From: a virus
Lineage: Duplodnaviria > Heunggongvirae > Uroviricota > Caudoviricetes
DNA length: 10,001 nt
IMG/VR virus record: IMGVR_UViG_3300029517_000070
Span: 1 to 10,001 of that record
Reading direction: 5' to 3' (one strand)
Shown: piece by piece, positions 203 through 10,001 of the stretch
Position numbering within the stretch: position 1 is the stretch's first letter
Layout: each line of letters begins with the position of its first letter
Program-made: the position numbers and the translations under genes
The notes under the pieces: generated by a model
Told to the model about the DNA's origin: nothing
The model's input: only the letters and a program-made list of their open reading frames with translations
Databases searched by the model: none

Positions 203-238
203 GTGGATAAAATAATTTTACCCACCGGATTTTTACCC

Positions 239-1393
239 ATGCTCACCGTTAAGCAGATTGAAGCAGCAAAGCCGAAAGAAAAACCATACCGCCTACTCGA
301 TGGTAATGGCCTGTACCTTTATGTCCCTGTATCAGGGAAAAAGGTATGGCAGCTTCGCTACAAGATTGACGGTAAGGAGAAAATCCTGACCGTCGGAAAA
401 TATCCACTTATGACTTTGCAGGAGGCAAGGGATAAGGCATGGACTGCGAGGAAAGACATCTCGGTTGGTATCGATCCGGTAAAGGCGAAAAAGGCTTCGT
501 CTAACAACAATTCCTTTAGTGCGATTTACAAGGAATGGTACGAGCACAAGAAGCAAGTCTGGTCAGTAGGCTATGCAACTGAACTTGCAAAAATGTTTGA
601 TGACGACATTTTACCTATCATCGGCGGCATTGAAATTCAGGATATTGAGCCGATGCAACTGCTGGAAGTAATCCGCAGATTTGAAGATCGCGGTGCAATG
701 GAGCGAGCAAATAAAGCCCGCAGAAGATGCGGCGAGGTTTTCCGTTACGCTATTGTCACTGGTAGGGCTAAATATAACCCGGCACCTGACCTTGCTGACG
801 CCATGAAGGGATACCGCAAGAAGAACTTCCCGTTTCTTCCTGCAGACCAGATCTCGGCATTCAACAAAGCACTTGCAACATTTTCAGGAAGTATCGTATC
901 GCTCATTGCGACCAAAGTTTTACGCTACACAGCCCTAAGAACAAAAGAGCTTCGTTCCATGCTATGGAAGAACGTCGATTTTGAAAACAGGATTATCACC
1001 ATCGACGCCAGTGTGATGAAGGGACGCAAAATTCATGTTGTCCCGATGTCAGACCAGGTGGTTGAACTTCTCACTACACTAAGCTCAATCACTAAACCAG
1101 TATCAGAGTTTGTTTTTTCCGGGCGCAACGATAAGAAGAAGCCAATCTGCGAGAACGCGGTATTGCTTGTGATCAAACAAATTGGCTATGAAGGGCTGGA
1201 AAGCGGTCACGGATTCAGGCATGAATTCAGCACGATTATGAACGAGCACGAATGGCCTGCTGACGCTATTGAAGTGCAACTGGCACATGCCAACGGCGGA
1301 TCTGTGCGCGGGATTTACAACCATGCTCAGTATCTCGATAAGCGCAGAGAAATGATGCAGTGGTGGGCTGACTGGCTTGATGAGAAGGCGTGA
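239..1393 (+). CDS. intS: Tyrosine recombinase / P4-family prophage integrase (IntS-like)
   Basis: ORF-track protein (203..1393) from residue 13 onward (MLTVKQIEAAKPKEKPYRLLDGNGLYLYVP...) matches E. coli CPS-53 IntS as I recall it. C-terminal catalytic region contains R...HxxR...Y-type motifs (HGFRHEF, GIYNHAQY). The GTG at 203 lies inside the putative promoter, so ATG at 239 is preferred; the start is still uncertain. Confidence 0.85.
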   Translation: MLTVKQIEAAKPKEKPYRLLDGNGLYLYVPVSGKKVWQLRYKIDGKEKILTVGKYPLMTLQEARDKAWTARKDISVGIDPVKAKKASSNNNSFSAIYKEWYEHKKQVWSVGYATELAKMFDDDILPIIGGIEIQDIEPMQLLEVIRRFEDRGAMERANKARRRCGEVFRYAIVTGRAKYNPAPDLADAMKGYRKKNFPFLPADQISAFNKALATFSGSIVSLIATKVLRYTALRTKELRSMLWKNVDFENRIITIDASVMKGRKIHVVPMSDQVVELLTTLSSITKPVSEFVFSGRNDKKKPICENAVLLVIKQIGYEGLESGHGFRHEFSTIMNEHEWPADAIEVQLAHANGGSVRGIYNHAQYLDKRREMMQWWADWLDEKA

Positions 1394-1482: not shown

Positions 1483-3318
1483 ATGTCTTCTAAATTTAGG
1501 AATGATATTAATGGGCTAAGGGCTCTAGCGGTCGCAGCTGTTATTATATATCACTTTAATAGCTCTTATATGTCAAGCGGATTTGCAGGAGTGGATGTTT
1601 TTTTTGTTATCTCTGGATACCTGATGACATCCATAATAGTTAATAAATTCAATGATGGTAATTTCAAGCTTTTTGATTTCTACCTATCAAGAGCAAAAAG
1701 AATCATACCATCATTAATAATAGTCTGCTTTGCTCTGTTGATTTTTGGTTTTTTATTAATAGAACCTGGTACTTATCAGCTAATAGGCAAGCATTCGGCA
1801 AGCTCTCTTACATTCATATCAAACTTTACCTATCTATTTGAATCTGGATATTTCGACCAATCATCCAAAGAAAAGTTTTTGCTGCACACTTGGTCACTAT
1901 CTGTTGAGTGGCAGTTCTACTTGATTTATCCATTTATAATAATATCAATTTCTAAGCTGTTTGGCATAACAAGGCTGCGAGCGGCGCTAGCGTCTCTATC
2001 GGTGATTGGATTTATAATTTCTTTAATTATATCAAAAGAAGATATATCTTTATCTTACTATATGTTTTTTAGTAGAGCATGGGAGATGATAGTAGGTGGA
2101 GTTATTTTCTTGCTTCCATCAATAATGACGCAGACAAAGAGACTGACTTTAGAAATAATAGGGTGCATTGGTATAATATTATCATTTTTTGTTTTTACTG
2201 AACAAACGTTATGGCCGGGGACTCCAACTCTAATGCCTGTAATGTTCACTGCATTGGTTATATATGCTAATAATGAAAAATCAATTCTATCTGCAAGGCC
2301 AATTCAATTAATCGGTAAGATATCATATTCTATATACTTGGTGCATTGGGTAATATTAGTATCATTAAAAAAACTGTATATAGACTTTGGGTTTGCTGCA
2401 TACCTGATATCAACATTAATGCTATCTTTTGCATTATATCACTTTGTTGAAAAAAGGCGTAGCTTTGGGAAAATATGGGTTTATTTGTATGTTTTATGTT
2501 TTCTCATTTCGCTGGCCGTCTCCTTGAATGGAGTCAGATCGCGAACAAGTGGGTCAGATGATTACAGAATGAGCCTTCAGGAGTTCAGAGACAAGTACGA
2601 AGGAAGTGATGGAGTAAAGGATAGCCTCAAACCTATCTTCTTCAACTCTAACGAAGATGACTTTGAATATATATTAATTGGAAGTAGCCATGCAAAGCAC
2701 TATTACTCATATATAAAATCAAAAGGTTTGAAAGTGGTGTCGCTTGCGCTTGATGGGTGTAACTCAACAAAAAACAGGTATACCAACTACCGTCCGGAAT
2801 CATGCGCCCCTCGCTATGATCAAGTGGTAAAATTCATCAATGGCCATCCTGGCAAAAAGGTAGTTTGGGCTACTTTGTGGACTTGGGTTGGGATCCCTAG
2901 AGATAGCTCCAAAAATAATAATGAGAGTACTCTAGATGTGATAAATGAAGAAGTAACTGCATTTATAGGTGACATTAATAAATCAAATAGTGACATTTAT
3001 CTTATAGGTGACGTTCCGGGCACTAAGAAACTAACATTTGAATGCATGGCTAAAAATTCGCTGCCTTTGAATAGATATTTCAATTTGGGCGGATGCAGTG
3101 ACAAGCAAAAGTATGAGGACGATGGTGTTGATGCAACACTATCATCCATAGCTAGAAAATATGATAACGTTCACTTTATAGGGGCTGCAAACTCCTTGTG
3201 TTCATCAGGTGAATGCATGTTGATATCTGAAGGTAAACCAATTTATACAGATTATGGTCACCTTTCAAAATATGGTGCAAATATAGTCGGAAAGTATATA
3301 TTCAGTAAAGTTAATTAA
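1483..3318 (+). CDS. Integral-membrane acyltransferase (acyltransferase-3 family) fused to a C-terminal SGNH-like domain; probable O-antigen O-acetyltransferase (Oac/OafA-like serotype-conversion moron)
   Basis: 611 aa. N-terminal about 370 aa are very hydrophobic with the AT3-type start (RNDINGLRALAVAAVIIYHF) and multiple predicted TM segments; the C-terminal about 240 aa are soluble. The gene is visibly much more AT-rich than its neighbours, and sits between int and tailspike as oac does in Sf6 and gtrABC do in CPS-53/P22. Confidence 0.85.
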   Translation: MSSKFRNDINGLRALAVAAVIIYHFNSSYMSSGFAGVDVFFVISGYLMTSIIVNKFNDGNFKLFDFYLSRAKRIIPSLIIVCFALLIFGFLLIEPGTYQLIGKHSASSLTFISNFTYLFESGYFDQSSKEKFLLHTWSLSVEWQFYLIYPFIIISISKLFGITRLRAALASLSVIGFIISLIISKEDISLSYYMFFSRAWEMIVGGVIFLLPSIMTQTKRLTLEIIGCIGIILSFFVFTEQTLWPGTPTLMPVMFTALVIYANNEKSILSARPIQLIGKISYSIYLVHWVILVSLKKLYIDFGFAAYLISTLMLSFALYHFVEKRRSFGKIWVYLYVLCFLISLAVSLNGVRSRTSGSDDYRMSLQEFRDKYEGSDGVKDSLKPIFFNSNEDDFEYILIGSSHAKHYYSYIKSKGLKVVSLALDGCNSTKNRYTNYRPESCAPRYDQVVKFINGHPGKKVVWATLWTWVGIPRDSSKNNNESTLDVINEEVTAFIGDINKSNSDIYLIGDVPGTKKLTFECMAKNSLPLNRYFNLGGCSDKQKYEDDGVDATLSSIARKYDNVHFIGAANSLCSSGECMLISEGKPIYTDYGHLSKYGANIVGKYIFSKVN

Positions 3319-3322
3319 ACTA

Positions 3323-3351
3323 AGGCCCCTCAATCCTGAGGGGCTTTTTTT
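3323..3351. terminator. Rho-independent terminator shared by the convergent acyltransferase and tailspike genes
   Basis: Perfect 8-bp GC-rich stem GCCCCTCA (3325-3332) / TGAGGGGC (3337-3344), 4-nt loop, then a run of seven T (3345-3351) on the + strand. The tailspike stop codon overlaps the T tract. Confidence 0.8.
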
Positions 3352-5182
3352 ACGCGGTTAATCTCCAGCGCTTATCATAGTAATGCATTAATCCTTGTGA
3401 TGTTATTTTCATATGCACGATTGCTTGAGAAAAAGTGGCGGCAGCAAAACTTACCCTAAGAAATGTTTGTGAGCCGTTATTGTATTTAGATGTGGTAATG
3501 CCGGTTAGGTTTTTACTTCCAGCAATCATATTTGACCAAACATTACTTGAAGCTAAAGTGGCTTGATCTTTTGCTGATACGCTTACCAATATAACTCCAC
3601 CGGTCTCACCAGTTCCGCCCAATCCATTCTGATTAATTGGCATAATCTTTAACTCTGCTGCGATAAAAACCCCCCCCGTATATGAAGCTTCTTCACCAAT
3701 CGTTGAAATAAGAATATCAATATTTCTTCCATATGGTACCAAAACCGTCGCATCTTCAGTTAATACCTGAGTGTATGTGGCGTTTTTAGCTTGGTGTTTA
3801 GCGGAAAGAACCACACCATCAGAACCAGTTCGAAAGCCGATTCCAGTATGTTCCCCGTAGTATTTACCGTAATAATTTATTCCTCTGACGTCAAATTCTG
3901 AAATAGCACTTCCGGTTGTGTTTTTTACGAAAATGAACTTATCACCGAAGGTGAAACCTCGGCACTGATATTGATTCGTTGGATCGGCAATGTTTTTAAG
4001 AAAGGAAATTCCCTTATAGGCTTTAACGTACCCACTTTCGAAACGAAAGTTCACAGGACCATTTTGTTCATTTGCTGGTAATTCAACAAAATGAGTAACC
4101 GTGGCTCCGCTAGGGTCCTGAATCCAGCAGGAAATGTTCTCAACGGTTGCAACTGATTGGCCGTCCTCTTCATTGTAATCTGCAAAATCAAGAGCGTGCG
4201 TACCATTTATCCCTTCGATACCCATACCTTTGATAGAAAGAGAGCGGAATCCATAGAACTTATGAGGTAAAGAACAACCATCTGCAGCAATATTATTTGC
4301 GGCAACGTACATTAATGGCCCCGGAGCCTTTACAGGTTCATAGGTTTCTCTATCAATCACAGCCCCCCAAAGATAACCAACACCACATTGCGAAGACCAA
4401 ATTGCAGAGACATCAGTACTTGTTCCCCATATTGCAAATCCGTATGTGCAATCATACATAAAAATATTTTGTATGACGCTGACAAATGGACACGATGGGA
4501 GCGCAAATTTATAATGGTAGAAGTCTATATTAGTTAGCTTCCAGTTCTTTCCGCCACCATACGTGGTGCTAGGACCACTTAGCAAAAGTGGACACCCTGT
4601 ATATTCAGAGTCAGTGTTTCTGAAACCAATATTTTCAATATGTAAATTATGACCCCATGAGGACATGTAAAAACCGCCATTTCCTGACGTATAAATCAAA
4701 CTCTGCCTCGGGTTATCACCCTTAATATTTAAGGTGATGCCTTCCCATCTAAACTGGCTAATGTCAATTTGAGTGTTACCAATATATATAGGCTGGTCTA
4801 TAAAAATAGGAAGTTTAGTTAGATAAGCTTTATTAAGTGCTAATCCATCATTTGTTACACCTGTTAAATCGACGCCACCCATGCTTGGCGCTTTTGGGTA
4901 AGGCGTTCCCTGAATAGTACTTCCATCAATATAAGGAGCATCCATCCACGCACCAAACATACGAGGAGTAACATATCCTTTCCCCTGCAGATCTCGTTTC
5001 CAGCGTTTACCACCCGCAGTGACAATGACCATGCCGTTATCATCTGCAGAAGTCGAATCTGTGAAATCGGCCACAAACAGACCACCACCAGTATCACCTG
5101 ATACTGTCGGCTTCATGCCTGTAGTGTGGAAGTCGACGAAAATCTTTTGCTGATCTCGCTCAGGCTCAATTGTCCTTAACAT
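3350..5182 (-). CDS. Tailspike / receptor-binding depolymerase-like protein (predicted beta-helix), lacking a P22-type N-terminal head-binding domain
   Basis: 610 aa, Gly/Asn/Thr/Ser-rich beta-type sequence with a pectate-lyase-like N-cap (GYVTPRMFGAW). Sits in the gene 9 position after ejection genes and convergent with the O-antigen acyltransferase. No Shine-Dalgarno before the ATG at 5182. No similarity to the conserved P22/Sf6/HK620 tailspike N-terminus as I recall it. Confidence 0.65.
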   Translation of the reverse strand: MLRTIEPERDQQKIFVDFHTTGMKPTVSGDTGGGLFVADFTDSTSADDNGMVIVTAGGKRWKRDLQGKGYVTPRMFGAWMDAPYIDGSTIQGTPYPKAPSMGGVDLTGVTNDGLALNKAYLTKLPIFIDQPIYIGNTQIDISQFRWEGITLNIKGDNPRQSLIYTSGNGGFYMSSWGHNLHIENIGFRNTDSEYTGCPLLLSGPSTTYGGGKNWKLTNIDFYHYKFALPSCPFVSVIQNIFMYDCTYGFAIWGTSTDVSAIWSSQCGVGYLWGAVIDRETYEPVKAPGPLMYVAANNIAADGCSLPHKFYGFRSLSIKGMGIEGINGTHALDFADYNEEDGQSVATVENISCWIQDPSGATVTHFVELPANEQNGPVNFRFESGYVKAYKGISFLKNIADPTNQYQCRGFTFGDKFIFVKNTTGSAISEFDVRGINYYGKYYGEHTGIGFRTGSDGVVLSAKHQAKNATYTQVLTEDATVLVPYGRNIDILISTIGEEASYTGGVFIAAELKIMPINQNGLGGTGETGGVILVSVSAKDQATLASSNVWSNMIAGSKNLTGITTSKYNNGSQTFLRVSFAAATFSQAIVHMKITSQGLMHYYDKRWRLTA

Positions 5183-5210
5183 TGCTATATCAGGGCATGT
5201 CCCGATGTAT

Positions 5211-5462
5211 TTAAGACCGTCTTACCAGACCACGACCAGCCTGTTCTGCAATTTGCCCTGCACTTTGACCACCAGTGAGCCAATCGCCAGCTTGTTGCAT
5301 CAATGATGGTTCTTCACGTGCTGGTTCATTGCTATCCTGGCTGACAGTTTGTTGCTGAACAGACTGTCCAGCAAAATACTCATCAATGGCAGATCCAATA
5401 TCTTCCGTGCTCGTACCATCAGGGAAGGTAAATGTCTTACCGTTTGCAGTTACTTTCATCAT
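5211..5462 (-). CDS. Hypothetical small protein (83 aa) at the position where a gp16-type ejection protein is expected; possibly an N-terminal remnant
   Basis: ORF with GGTGGA Shine-Dalgarno just upstream of tandem ATGs (GTGGAATGATGAAAG); the C-terminal half is low-complexity and Q/A/G/E-rich. Functional assignment is inference. Confidence 0.4.
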
Positions 5463-5572
5463 TCCACCGTAAATTGAATGCCTGATTTTGAGGTATATGA
5501 TCCAACCTGATTCCGTGGTTCTCCTGAAGGTGTCGAATCTTGCGCTGGTGCTGCGTCAGTATTCATTGACAT
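5459..5572 (-). CDS. Possible 37-codon ORF ([37 protein letters not shown]) overlapping the gp20-like stop and coupled by ATGA overlap to the 83-aa ORF
   Basis: Hand translation of the minus strand; below the ORF-track length cutoff. May be a gene remnant rather than a real gene. Confidence 0.2.
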
Positions 5573-6873
5573 ATACCGCTTAACGGCACTCCCAATGATT
5601 CACCTTTTTTAACATCCAACCCCAATATCTGACCGCCATTACGCGATTGTCCAGGGTTGCCATTCGCGCTCATCCACTCGGCTTTAAACTCATTAAACTG
5701 CGCGTTTCGTCGCTCAAGGTTTGCCATTGCATCAAGCCATCTTGCGACCGTCTCAGGGTTATCCATGTCAGTTGGTGCACCCTGACGAACGATCTCAACG
5801 TCTTTATCCGTTGCGGGGCCGGGAGGTAGGAATTTAAGAACCTGACTGTTAACAAGGGCATTTTGGCGAATGCGCAAATCACGCAATGTCGTATCGCTTC
5901 CGGTAAGTTTTGCGAACATGTTCTGTGCGTTACCGAACAAACCTGTCGTTGGTTTTTCTGCTCTGAACTGTTGAGCAAGCGCACTCATAGAATTGGCTGA
6001 GTTTGATGATGCTGTGGCATTGTTTACAGCCGTCTCGATGCCTTTTTCCATGTTTACTGACAGCTTAGGTGCTTCGCTAATCAACTGCTGAGCCTTTTCC
6101 TGCGCTTGCTGCATCTTAAACCCGAACTCTTGCTGATCCAGAGCCAAGCGTTGTGCTGCGATATTGTGCCCAGTCATTGCTGACTGATAGGAAAGGTTTT
6201 GCCCTCTCGCCTGAAGTGCTTCACCAGCCTGATTGCTGCGGATTGTCTCTGCCAGCCTGCCTCGGTCAATTTCACGACCAGCCATCTTATCCTGAACAGC
6301 AAACGCCTTTTCTGGCCCAAGCGCACCGAGAGACATAGTAGTCAGCATGTGTGATAGCTGCTCTGGATTCTGGATACCTGTCTGAATCATCCAGTCAGCA
6401 TTAGCACCAACGCGATTTAACCTGTCCTTGTTGTCAGTAATGAATTTACTGTAGGCTTCCGGTCCCTGAGAAAGAGCGACGTTAGCCCTCATGGCTAAAT
6501 CGCCCATATCGTTGCGTTGCTGCTCATTAAGACCGGAAAACGCCTGTTGTGCCTGTGCAACAAACGCTGGATTTTCCTGGGCAAACTTAAATAGTCCCGA
6601 TGGATCACCAGAAGCCCATGCATCAGCGTGAACCTTATTGAACGCACTAATCGCTTTCTGTTGCTGTTCCTGCTTATAAATATCAGCAACTCCAGCCAGA
6701 CCACGTAACGCGGTCAGACCAACGTTATTTGCACCTGAGCGAGCCAGTTCATTGTTTTCGCGGATCAGACCAAGCGTTGCGTTAATGTCGCTTGCCTTTG
6801 GCGCATTCTCGTTTTGCGCACCAATGCCAGCCAGAAAACCACCAGAATTAATACCCTGTTGCCACGTAGCCAT
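5563..6873 (-). CDS. Phage ejection / internal virion protein, P22 gp20-like
   Basis: 436 aa, Ala/Gln-rich and predicted alpha-helical; AAGGGG Shine-Dalgarno 7 nt upstream of the ATG; located directly downstream of the gp7-like gene in the same operon. Assignment by order and composition, recalled not searched. Confidence 0.7.
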
Positions 6874-6883
6874 TGATTACCCC

Positions 6884-7576
6884 TTAAAACAACGAGCCAA
6901 GCAATCCGATACCAGCACCAATGCCAGCGCCCCAAGGCGTTGATGTTCCCAAAATGCTGGCAAGACCTGCACCGGCAATCGCACCAGACGTGCCACCGCT
7001 AATTGCAGTCTGAAGACTTGATGGTTTATTGGCATTAGCAGCGGCAAGAGCTGCGCTTTGCTGTGCAATGCTGCTCATGTTGTTGGCGTACGTCTGCCCG
7101 GCGTTTGCCTGACCTTGCAGTGCACCAAGCCCAACGTTTGCCAGATTGTTGTAATTGCTCATCTGATTTGATAACCAAGACTGACCGAGTGTCGGCGCGA
7201 TCGTAGCCAGTTGATTGCTTGTGGCTGTCGAACCAAGTCCACCCGTCGCCTCCGCAGCAGCAAGACTCTGGTAACGAGCCTGACCTGCAAGGTCTTTATA
7301 CTGCTGAGAGTTGTAATACTGATTAAGTGCCTGCCCCTGACCTTCTAAACTGGAAAGGTTTTGAAGCTGGTTAACATACTGCTCCGCAAGAGGCGTGAAC
7401 GGAGCAAGGTTTTTCATGATCGTCTGCCACTGCTGATTTTGCAGGTCTGCGGCATACTTCTGAGCTTCTGCTGCATACTTTGCGCTTTTATCAGAGCTGC
7501 CACCTTTCCCGCCTTTTTCAGGGCAATAAGGTTCCTCGCCGCGCAGTTTTCTGCCCAGCTTAAATGCATATAACAT
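6884..7576 (-). CDS. Phage ejection protein, P22 gp7-like
   Basis: 230 aa; N-terminus MLYAFKLGRKLRGEEPYCPEKGGKGG and a Gly/Ala-rich hydrophobic C-terminus are typical of P22-type gp7 as I recall; GGGAGA Shine-Dalgarno 5 nt upstream. Confidence 0.7.
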   Translation of the reverse strand: MLYAFKLGRKLRGEEPYCPEKGGKGGSSDKSAKYAAEAQKYAADLQNQQWQTIMKNLAPFTPLAEQYVNQLQNLSSLEGQGQALNQYYNSQQYKDLAGQARYQSLAAAEATGGLGSTATSNQLATIAPTLGQSWLSNQMSNYNNLANVGLGALQGQANAGQTYANNMSSIAQQSAALAAANANKPSSLQTAISGGTSGAIAGAGLASILGTSTPWGAGIGAGIGLLGSLF

Positions 7577-7578
7577 AG

Positions 7579-9385
<1,807 letters not shown>

Positions 9386-9845: not shown

Positions 9846-9956
9846 ATGGATGCACAAGCACGCCGCCGCGAACGTCGCGCAGAGAAACAGGCTCAATGGA
9901 AAGCAGCAAATCCCCTGTTGGTTGGGGTATCCAGCGACGATTTTAGCGCCCAATAA
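9846..9956 (+). pseudogene. N: N antiterminator remnant: 36-codon ORF retaining the arginine-rich boxB-binding motif but lacking the NusA- and RNAP-binding regions
   Basis: AGGAG Shine-Dalgarno 7 nt upstream; MDAQARRRERRAEKQAQWKAANPLLVGVS is near-identical to lambda N residues 1-29 (107 aa in lambda), then diverges to SDDFSAQ-stop at about 9930. Confidence 0.7.
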
Positions 9957-10001
9957 ACACGTTTCCCCTCGTGCGTTAATTCCACTTTGCGATGGGAACG
10001 A

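Follow-up and report, generated by a model that had tools for sequence, protein, structure and literature searches.

Escherichia coli K-12 carries a cryptic P22-like remnant, CPS-53 (KpLE1), at argW, between yfdC/argW-intS and dsdC. It keeps an integrase and an O-antigen-modification gene, and most of its phage genes are deleted. Truncated gp16 N-termini, like cryptic P22-like remnants at argW, are an already known kind of object: NCBI holds "DNA transfer protein, partial [Escherichia coli]" entries, including 79-80-aa records (among them the 80-aa EGZ5147988.1) with the gp16 allele described below. An intact counterpart is provided by a complete 40.5-kb phage genome contig (JGI 3300076355 Ga0564394_00001, hereafter L015), which has a full virion gene set in the order gp14-gp7-gp20 (468 aa)-gp16 (613)-sieA (188)-orf193-mnt-arc-ant (300)-tailspike (744, with Head_binding and Phage_tail_beta domains)-acyltransferase (611)-int.

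The window analysed here, meaning the whole stretch of 10,001 nucleotides, is a cryptic P22-like (Lederbergvirus) E. coli prophage of ~10 kb, heavily deleted and inserted at the tRNA-Arg gene argW. Like CPS-53, it is a P22-like argW remnant that has kept an integrase and an O-antigen-modification gene. It differs in its deletion pattern and cargo, with an AT3-SGNH acyltransferase instead of gtr (yfdGHI); it also keeps gp7/gp20 and a 434-type cI/cro, and its deletion extends into dsdC. Its genes represent the late-operon end of such a prophage. Its main features are the following.

3-77: tRNA-Arg(CCT).
203-1393, plus strand: IntS-type integrase.
1483-3318, plus strand: AT3-SGNH acyltransferase, 611 aa.
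3325-3344: GC-rich hairpin GCCCCTCAGGATTGAGGGGC, between the convergent tailspike and acyltransferase genes.
3350-5182, minus strand: tailspike remnant of 610 aa, corresponding to residues 135-744 of the 744-aa intact form.
5183-5221, minus strand: former tailspike codons ~121-134, the same sequence as L015 10364-10402, in agreement with the intact tailspike of E. coli 573.
5211-5462, minus strand: 83-codon ORF with ATG start and TAA stop, made of gp16 codons 1-80 (5223-5462) and three junction codons, RRS, with the stop (5211-5222).
5222/5223, minus strand: deletion junction with AA microhomology, placed by three-way alignments and blast breakpoints against L015.
5463-5468, minus strand: SD-like GGTGGA of the ancestral gp16 start, inside the C-terminal coding sequence of gp20.
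5459-5572, minus strand: 37-codon ORF with ATG start, equal to residues 435-471 of phage N7 gp20.
5563-6873, minus strand: frameshifted gene of a gp20-type ejection protein, 436 codons (PF16928 Inj_translocase, E=3.5e-118).
5591-5593, minus strand: frameshift site found by sequence comparison, a run of three G where relatives have four (1-nt deletion).
6884-7576: gp7 (PF25688).
About 7579-8106: gp14/DUF2824 gene.
8024-8984: cI/cro region in phage 434-like DNA, with a cro-like HTH gene and an S24-peptidase cI repressor.

A 50-kb human-gut metagenome contig (L007) is 99.93% identical to the entire window, with a single gap at the frameshift G, and in it the element is flanked by host genes: yfdC on one side, a truncated dsdC and dsdX on the other. 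The 610-aa tail protein (WP_336475503.1) and the acyltransferase are also recorded from E. coli in NCBI. None of the 5,426 complete RefSeq E. coli genomes covers at least 80% of the window, and the element was found just in draft genomes and metagenomes. The hairpin at 3325-3344 is probably a terminator common to the tailspike and acyltransferase genes. An Rfam scan of the whole window returned the tRNA-Arg alone, with no RNA gene in 5183-5572.

Between the gp20-like gene and the tailspike lie two small ORFs of 37 and 83 codons, both on the minus strand; the sequence-only reading had placed them correctly, and had noted that a full-length gp16 is missing from this interval. L015 confirms the latter, having there the 613-aa gp16, sieA, mnt, arc and ant. 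The window contains 105 ORFs of at least 30 aa, so that small ORF size alone is common. As ORFs this long are frequent here, it is only homology that lifts the two above chance.

In tblastn, the first 80 residues of the epsilon34 gp16 homologue align to 5462-5223 in one frame with 90% identity (E=1.8e-35), and the same residues of P22 gp16 align to the same interval, in the same frame, with 74% identity. The alignment of codons 1-80 with the gp16 N-terminus of epsilon34, P22 and L015 is collinear, confined to a single frame, and stops exactly at the junction. The rest of gp16 has no match in any frame of the window. The 83-aa product matches phrog_770 (E=2.3e-27) over positions 1-90 of the 668-position profile. 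A precomputed hit to PF26808 (Phage_P22_gp16) exists on the record for this ORF, and our local Pfam copy gave none. Searches of both small products against local Pfam, NCBIfam and PADLOC returned no family, the informative tools being PHROGs and tblastn.

On these alignments, the 83-codon ORF is codons 1-80 of a deleted gp16 gene followed by the junction codons, a fragment of a family member and not itself a member. A full-length gp16 has ~600-710 aa with central and C-terminal parts; here the frame stops after 83 codons. Set against P22 gp16, epsilon34 gp13 and HK620 gp16, the fragment runs collinearly with their N-terminal 80 residues at 74-90% identity, and the position after gp20, the overlap and the SD are the same. 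What differs is the extent: 80 of ~610-710 residues are left, followed by three junction residues. Because the remaining 85-90% of gp16 is absent and the fragment amounts to less than 15% of the protein, it cannot serve as a working ejection protein.

The translation signals of the ORF follow the same ancestry. The minus strand at 5469..5450 reads CGGTGGAATGATGAAAGTAA, with two successive ATGs at 5462-5460 and 5459-5457; the 37-codon ORF has its TGA stop at 5461-5459. The resulting ATGA at 5462-5459 is a stop-start overlap, and the equivalent gp20/gp16 overlap is annotated in P22, epsilon34 and N7. P22 gp16 begins MKVTANGK. The spacing to the SD suits the second ATG better, and gene callers picked the 82-aa form in three contigs (L019-L021). 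The sequence-only reading had seen in the Shine-Dalgarno and the ATGA overlap the marks of a genuine small gene. Both are indeed present; as judged from the annotated relatives, they are the inherited translational-coupling junction of gp20 and gp16.

The end of the fragment was resolved at the level of single bases. Window 6298-5222 corresponds to L015 4432-5509 with 96.8% identity, and window 5226-63 to L015 10359-15522 with 98.7% identity. Since the alignment leaves L015 at 5509 and resumes at 10359 with a 5-nt overlap, the deletion measures 4,854 bp relative to L015. It removed gp16 codons 81-613, sieA, the unnamed 193-aa gene, mnt, arc, ant and the head-binding domain of the tailspike. 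L015 and three further relatives (L016-L018) carry the 4,854 bp that the window has lost, and share with it 97-99% DNA identity on either side of the junction, the same receptor-binding part of the tailspike, the AT3-SGNH acyltransferase and the integrase. DNA homology to all gp16-bearing phages and prophages ends at window 5222. Homology to intact tailspikes starts at 5226/5223 and continues through the internal Met, window 4670-5226 matching the interior of tailspike genes that have a head-binding domain.

In the base-level three-way alignment, the gp16 parent reads ...GGTCGTGGTCTGGTAA up to the breakpoint and ACATACC... beyond it; the tailspike parent reads ...TCTATCAGGGGAA before it and GACGGTCTTAAATAC... 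after it. The window reads ...GGTCGTGGTCTGGTAAGACGGTCTTAAATAC... across the junction, also given as ...CTGGTAAGACGG..., and the AA dinucleotide at 5222-5223 is common to both parents. The join brings gp16 codon 80 up against roughly the 120th codon of the tailspike gene. As the gp16 and tailspike frames differ, the gp16 frame past the junction reads AGA CGG TCT TAA and ends as RRS-stop. The stretch 5183-5221 supplies these codons and a 28-nt spacer. A fusion protein of gp16' and the tailspike was considered and is ruled out: the frames lie 1 nt apart and the TAA is reached three codons beyond the junction.

The sequence-only reading had overlooked that the neighbouring tailspike is itself truncated. 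The 610-aa ORF shares 605 of 610 positions with the stretch 135-744 of P0033, an E. coli tailspike of 744 aa that carries PF09008 Head_binding and PF27114; the Pfam scan gave no PF09008 hit in the 610-aa ORF. It matches phrog_33504 over positions 135-600 of 604. By these comparisons, the annotated "tailspike" is a 5'-truncated pseudogene, opened at an internal Met, from which the first 134 residues are gone.

As a separate observation, this internal Met coincides with the natural N-terminus of ~610-aa stand-alone tail proteins that are 46-52% identical over their full length, and on that ground it marks a module boundary in tailspike domain shuffling. Such ~610-aa stand-alone tailspike or tail proteins occur in unrelated Kagunavirus, in Enterobacter phage fGh-Ecl02 and in Escherichia phage TH20.

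The second small ORF has a different origin. In tblastn, residues 1-428 of phage N7 gp20 align to 6873-5590 with 99% identity, and residues 417-471 align to 5626-5462 in a different frame (E=3.3e-23). The 436-codon ORF consists of 428 native codons followed by eight out-of-frame codons (VPLSGICQ) and a stop. At the frameshift the window and one Logan contig (L013) have TTGGGAGT, and nine relatives (L002, L005, L007-L012, L014) have TTGGGGAGT; in a wider view, the window reads ...AATCATTGGGAGTGCC..., and N7, E. coli CUVET17-972 and seven sister metagenome contigs read ...AATCATTGGGGAGTGCC.... The early stop of gp20 and the detachment of its last 37 codons follow from the loss of one G from the run of four, and these codons survive as an ORF because gp20 codon 435 is an internal Met.

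The 37-aa product differs from residues 435-471 of N7 gp20 at a single residue (N21 in place of S) and matches the gp20 family, phrog_917, at positions 472-509 of 509 (E=6e-6). Its ORF overlaps the 3' end of the 436-codon ORF by 10 nt (5563-5572). Together, the two ORFs reconstitute the 471-aa protein represented by P22 gp20 and N7 ORF12 (PF16928, phrog_917); in contrast to these, the window gene is split by the 1-nt deletion and its extreme C-terminal segment is detached. By this correspondence, the 37-codon ORF is the last 37 codons of gp20, out of frame, a fragment and not a gene. The proposal of a gp16 N-terminal remnant thus holds for the 83-codon ORF, with its codons 1-80 collinear, and fails for the 37-codon ORF, which belongs to the C-terminus of gp20.

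The family trait of a single uninterrupted frame of ~450-472 codons is absent from the window, L013 and L019-L021. An intact 471-aa gp20 is found in 7-8 sister contigs (including L007-L012 and L014), where there is no separate 37-codon ORF. Programmed frameshifting of gp20 was also considered and is ruled out: in every relative the 471-aa protein is a single frame, from which the window departs by one missing G alone.

The same alignments bear on another origin put forward for the pair, that of distinct small genes, a moron, inserted at the sieA/immI hotspot in place of gp16. Its appeal is one of position only, the interval between gp20 and the tailspike being where P22-like phages carry accessory genes. 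Yet throughout 5222-5572 the DNA follows ancestral gp20/gp16 collinearly, 93-100% identical to relatives; nothing foreign separates the flanks, and the hotspot genes have been deleted, not replaced. The alignments found no DNA other than gp20, gp16 and tailspike at 5183-5572, and searches of Pfam, NCBIfam and PADLOC gave neither ORF any homology to exclusion, immI or defence families (SieA PF26849, Mnt/Arc PF03869, Ant PF10547). The suggestion of a small-protein pair in an exclusion hotspot is accordingly given up, with next to no probability left to it. We return to the two ORFs as fragments of gp16 and gp20, an identity that alignment with the existing intact parental forms establishes directly.

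A sequencing or assembly artefact could in principle have produced the frameshift, the deletion or both from a true genome with intact gp20 and gp16. The frameshift does sit in a homopolymer, with GGGG in most sister contigs, and the exact 36-mer across the junction has no match in JGI metagenome contigs or GTDB representative genome contigs. Against this, at least 12 contigs, drawn from independent ENA and Logan samples, carry the junction, and the 83-codon ORF is identical in at least 12; these contigs were gathered by exact-protein look-up, by which decayed variants of the fragment cannot appear. The gp16 allele of the window (S24/S34/S41/D43/S44) also occurs in NCBI E. coli records. The GGG variant recurs in L013 (Logan SRR9690646), 100% identical over 1,732 bp, and the exact 436-aa gp20 product in at least three further ENA gut-metagenome assemblies from different projects. 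As independent ENA, Logan, JGI and NCBI E. coli assemblies share the junction, and ENA and Logan data share the frameshift, we hold that neither lesion is an assembly artefact, an explanation that we consider extremely improbable. The junction and the frameshift are features of the element.

Decay is not confined to this locus. Three more microhomology junctions occur, N'/dsdC', cro/portal fragment and portal fragment/gp14', and make it general across the element.

About 9925-9929, in 9846-10001: N'/dsdC' junction with GGGTA microhomology.
About 8034-8036: cro/portal junction, from the cro 3' end to a piece of the portal gene.
About 7954-7969: portal fragment/gp14' junction, from the portal piece to gp14 near codon 20.
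7954-8036, minus strand: internal piece of the portal gene of ~83 bp, 92% identical to the CUS-3 and Kapi1 portal genes.

At the first of these, codon 28 of the antiterminator N gene is joined to the antisense of host dsdC near codon 88; attR is lost and the host D-serine regulator dsdC is cut to about 98 aa. The portal piece adds YWA to cro and makes a spurious N-terminus of a 175-aa TTG ORF. It was left behind by two separate deletions, which took away at least ~20 kb of early and head genes. The element has no replication, lysis, late-regulator or head gene left. Still intact are int, the acyltransferase, cI, cro, gp7 and, in most lineages, gp20. DNA comparison of the immunity region gives 98.5% identity with phage 434 and 99.7% with Sf101. 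The 611-aa acyltransferase, which is OafA/Oac-like, is probably an O-antigen acetylase. That int, the acyltransferase and cI/cro are intact fits an element that is losing its virion genes and keeping those for lysogenic conversion and immunity.

Next to the repressor, and overlapping cI at its 3' end, a 158-aa ORF (134 aa in the calls of L007) lies at 8909-9385 on the plus strand. It is a member of phrog_2651, a family of unassigned function, and in Sf6 (gene 38), Sf101 and HK446 its counterpart is the gene that follows the repressor. The N-terminus of its product resembles a signal peptide; Pfam and PADLOC gave no match.

We propose the following history. The ancestor had the canonical order 14-7-20-16-sieA-mnt-arc-ant-tailspike-acyltransferase-int. 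An illegitimate deletion of ~4.85 kb, mediated by the AA microhomology, then removed the DNA from gp16 codon 81 to about tailspike codon 120, leaving the 83-codon ORF still bearing gp16's own SD and the stop-start overlap with gp20. Later, and in a sub-lineage only, a homopolymer slip cost gp20 one G of GGGG about 36 codons before its end. Both small ORFs are thus very probably non-functional gene fragments, by-products of prophage decay.

The sole co-directional promoter upstream is a PR-like TTGACA-17-GAAAAT at 8304..8276. The late promoter and its activator are deleted and the intact cI should repress a 434-type PR, from which we infer that expression of the small ORFs would be negligible, at most incidental read-through from PR. 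Given its intact start, SD and coupling context, the 83-codon ORF may nevertheless have some expression and residual activity.

That context invites the thought that a small functional protein has been kept here, in the form of the gp16 N-terminal fragment alone or together with the gp20 C-terminal peptide. In detail, it might act as a dominant-negative decoy on the gp20 plinth of superinfecting P22-like phages, blocking assembly of the inner-membrane DNA channel and replacing sieA. The native SD, the ATG and the translational coupling of the fragment are all preserved; the 434-type PR now stands upstream in the same orientation, separated from the fragment by cro-gp14'-gp7-gp20; and the remnant occurs in many gut metagenomes and E. 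coli isolates. Moreover, the segment 5222-5497, made of the last 14 codons of gp20 and gp16 codons 1-80, matches epsilon34 at 93% and P22 at 75%, and the flanking gp20 does not. The detached gp20 peptide is the counterpart of P22 gp20 residues 436-471, which a 2026 preprint treats as a segment apart; in its AlphaFold3 models these residues shift position once the gp16 N-terminal region (1-205) is included, a hint at an interaction between the two. The homology pattern and the preprint models suggest that 5222-5497 is a co-inherited interaction module of the gp20 C-terminus and the gp16 N-terminus.

Several observations weigh the other way. The truncation point was set by a random 2-nt microhomology, out of frame, and less than 15% of gp16 remains; the 37-codon peptide is limited to a sub-lineage and stems from a homopolymer slip; the intact cI should keep PR repressed, and the activator of the late genes has been lost by deletion; PADLOC and Pfam gave no defence signature. 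Sister contigs are more than 99.4% identical, a sequence divergence too small to show selection either way. Preservation as a functional protein would seem very unlikely. Its specific form, an 80-residue fragment made by derepressible PR read-through (with the free 37-mer in the frameshifted sub-lineage) that serves as a decoy for the gp20-gp16 interface, would be highly improbable; if true, it would be a new type of superinfection exclusion, built from a broken ejection gene. We infer instead that neither fragment is functional.

The right annotation of the locus is therefore three pseudogenes, a frameshifted gp20, a truncated gp16 and a 5'-truncated tailspike, and not small-protein genes. 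It documents at base resolution the stepwise decay of a prophage at the argW hotspot, through four short-microhomology junctions and one homopolymer frameshift, with intact parents for comparison. An intact int, cI/cro and O-antigen-type acyltransferase amid eroding virion genes fit the usual picture of cryptic prophages that retain genes useful to the host.
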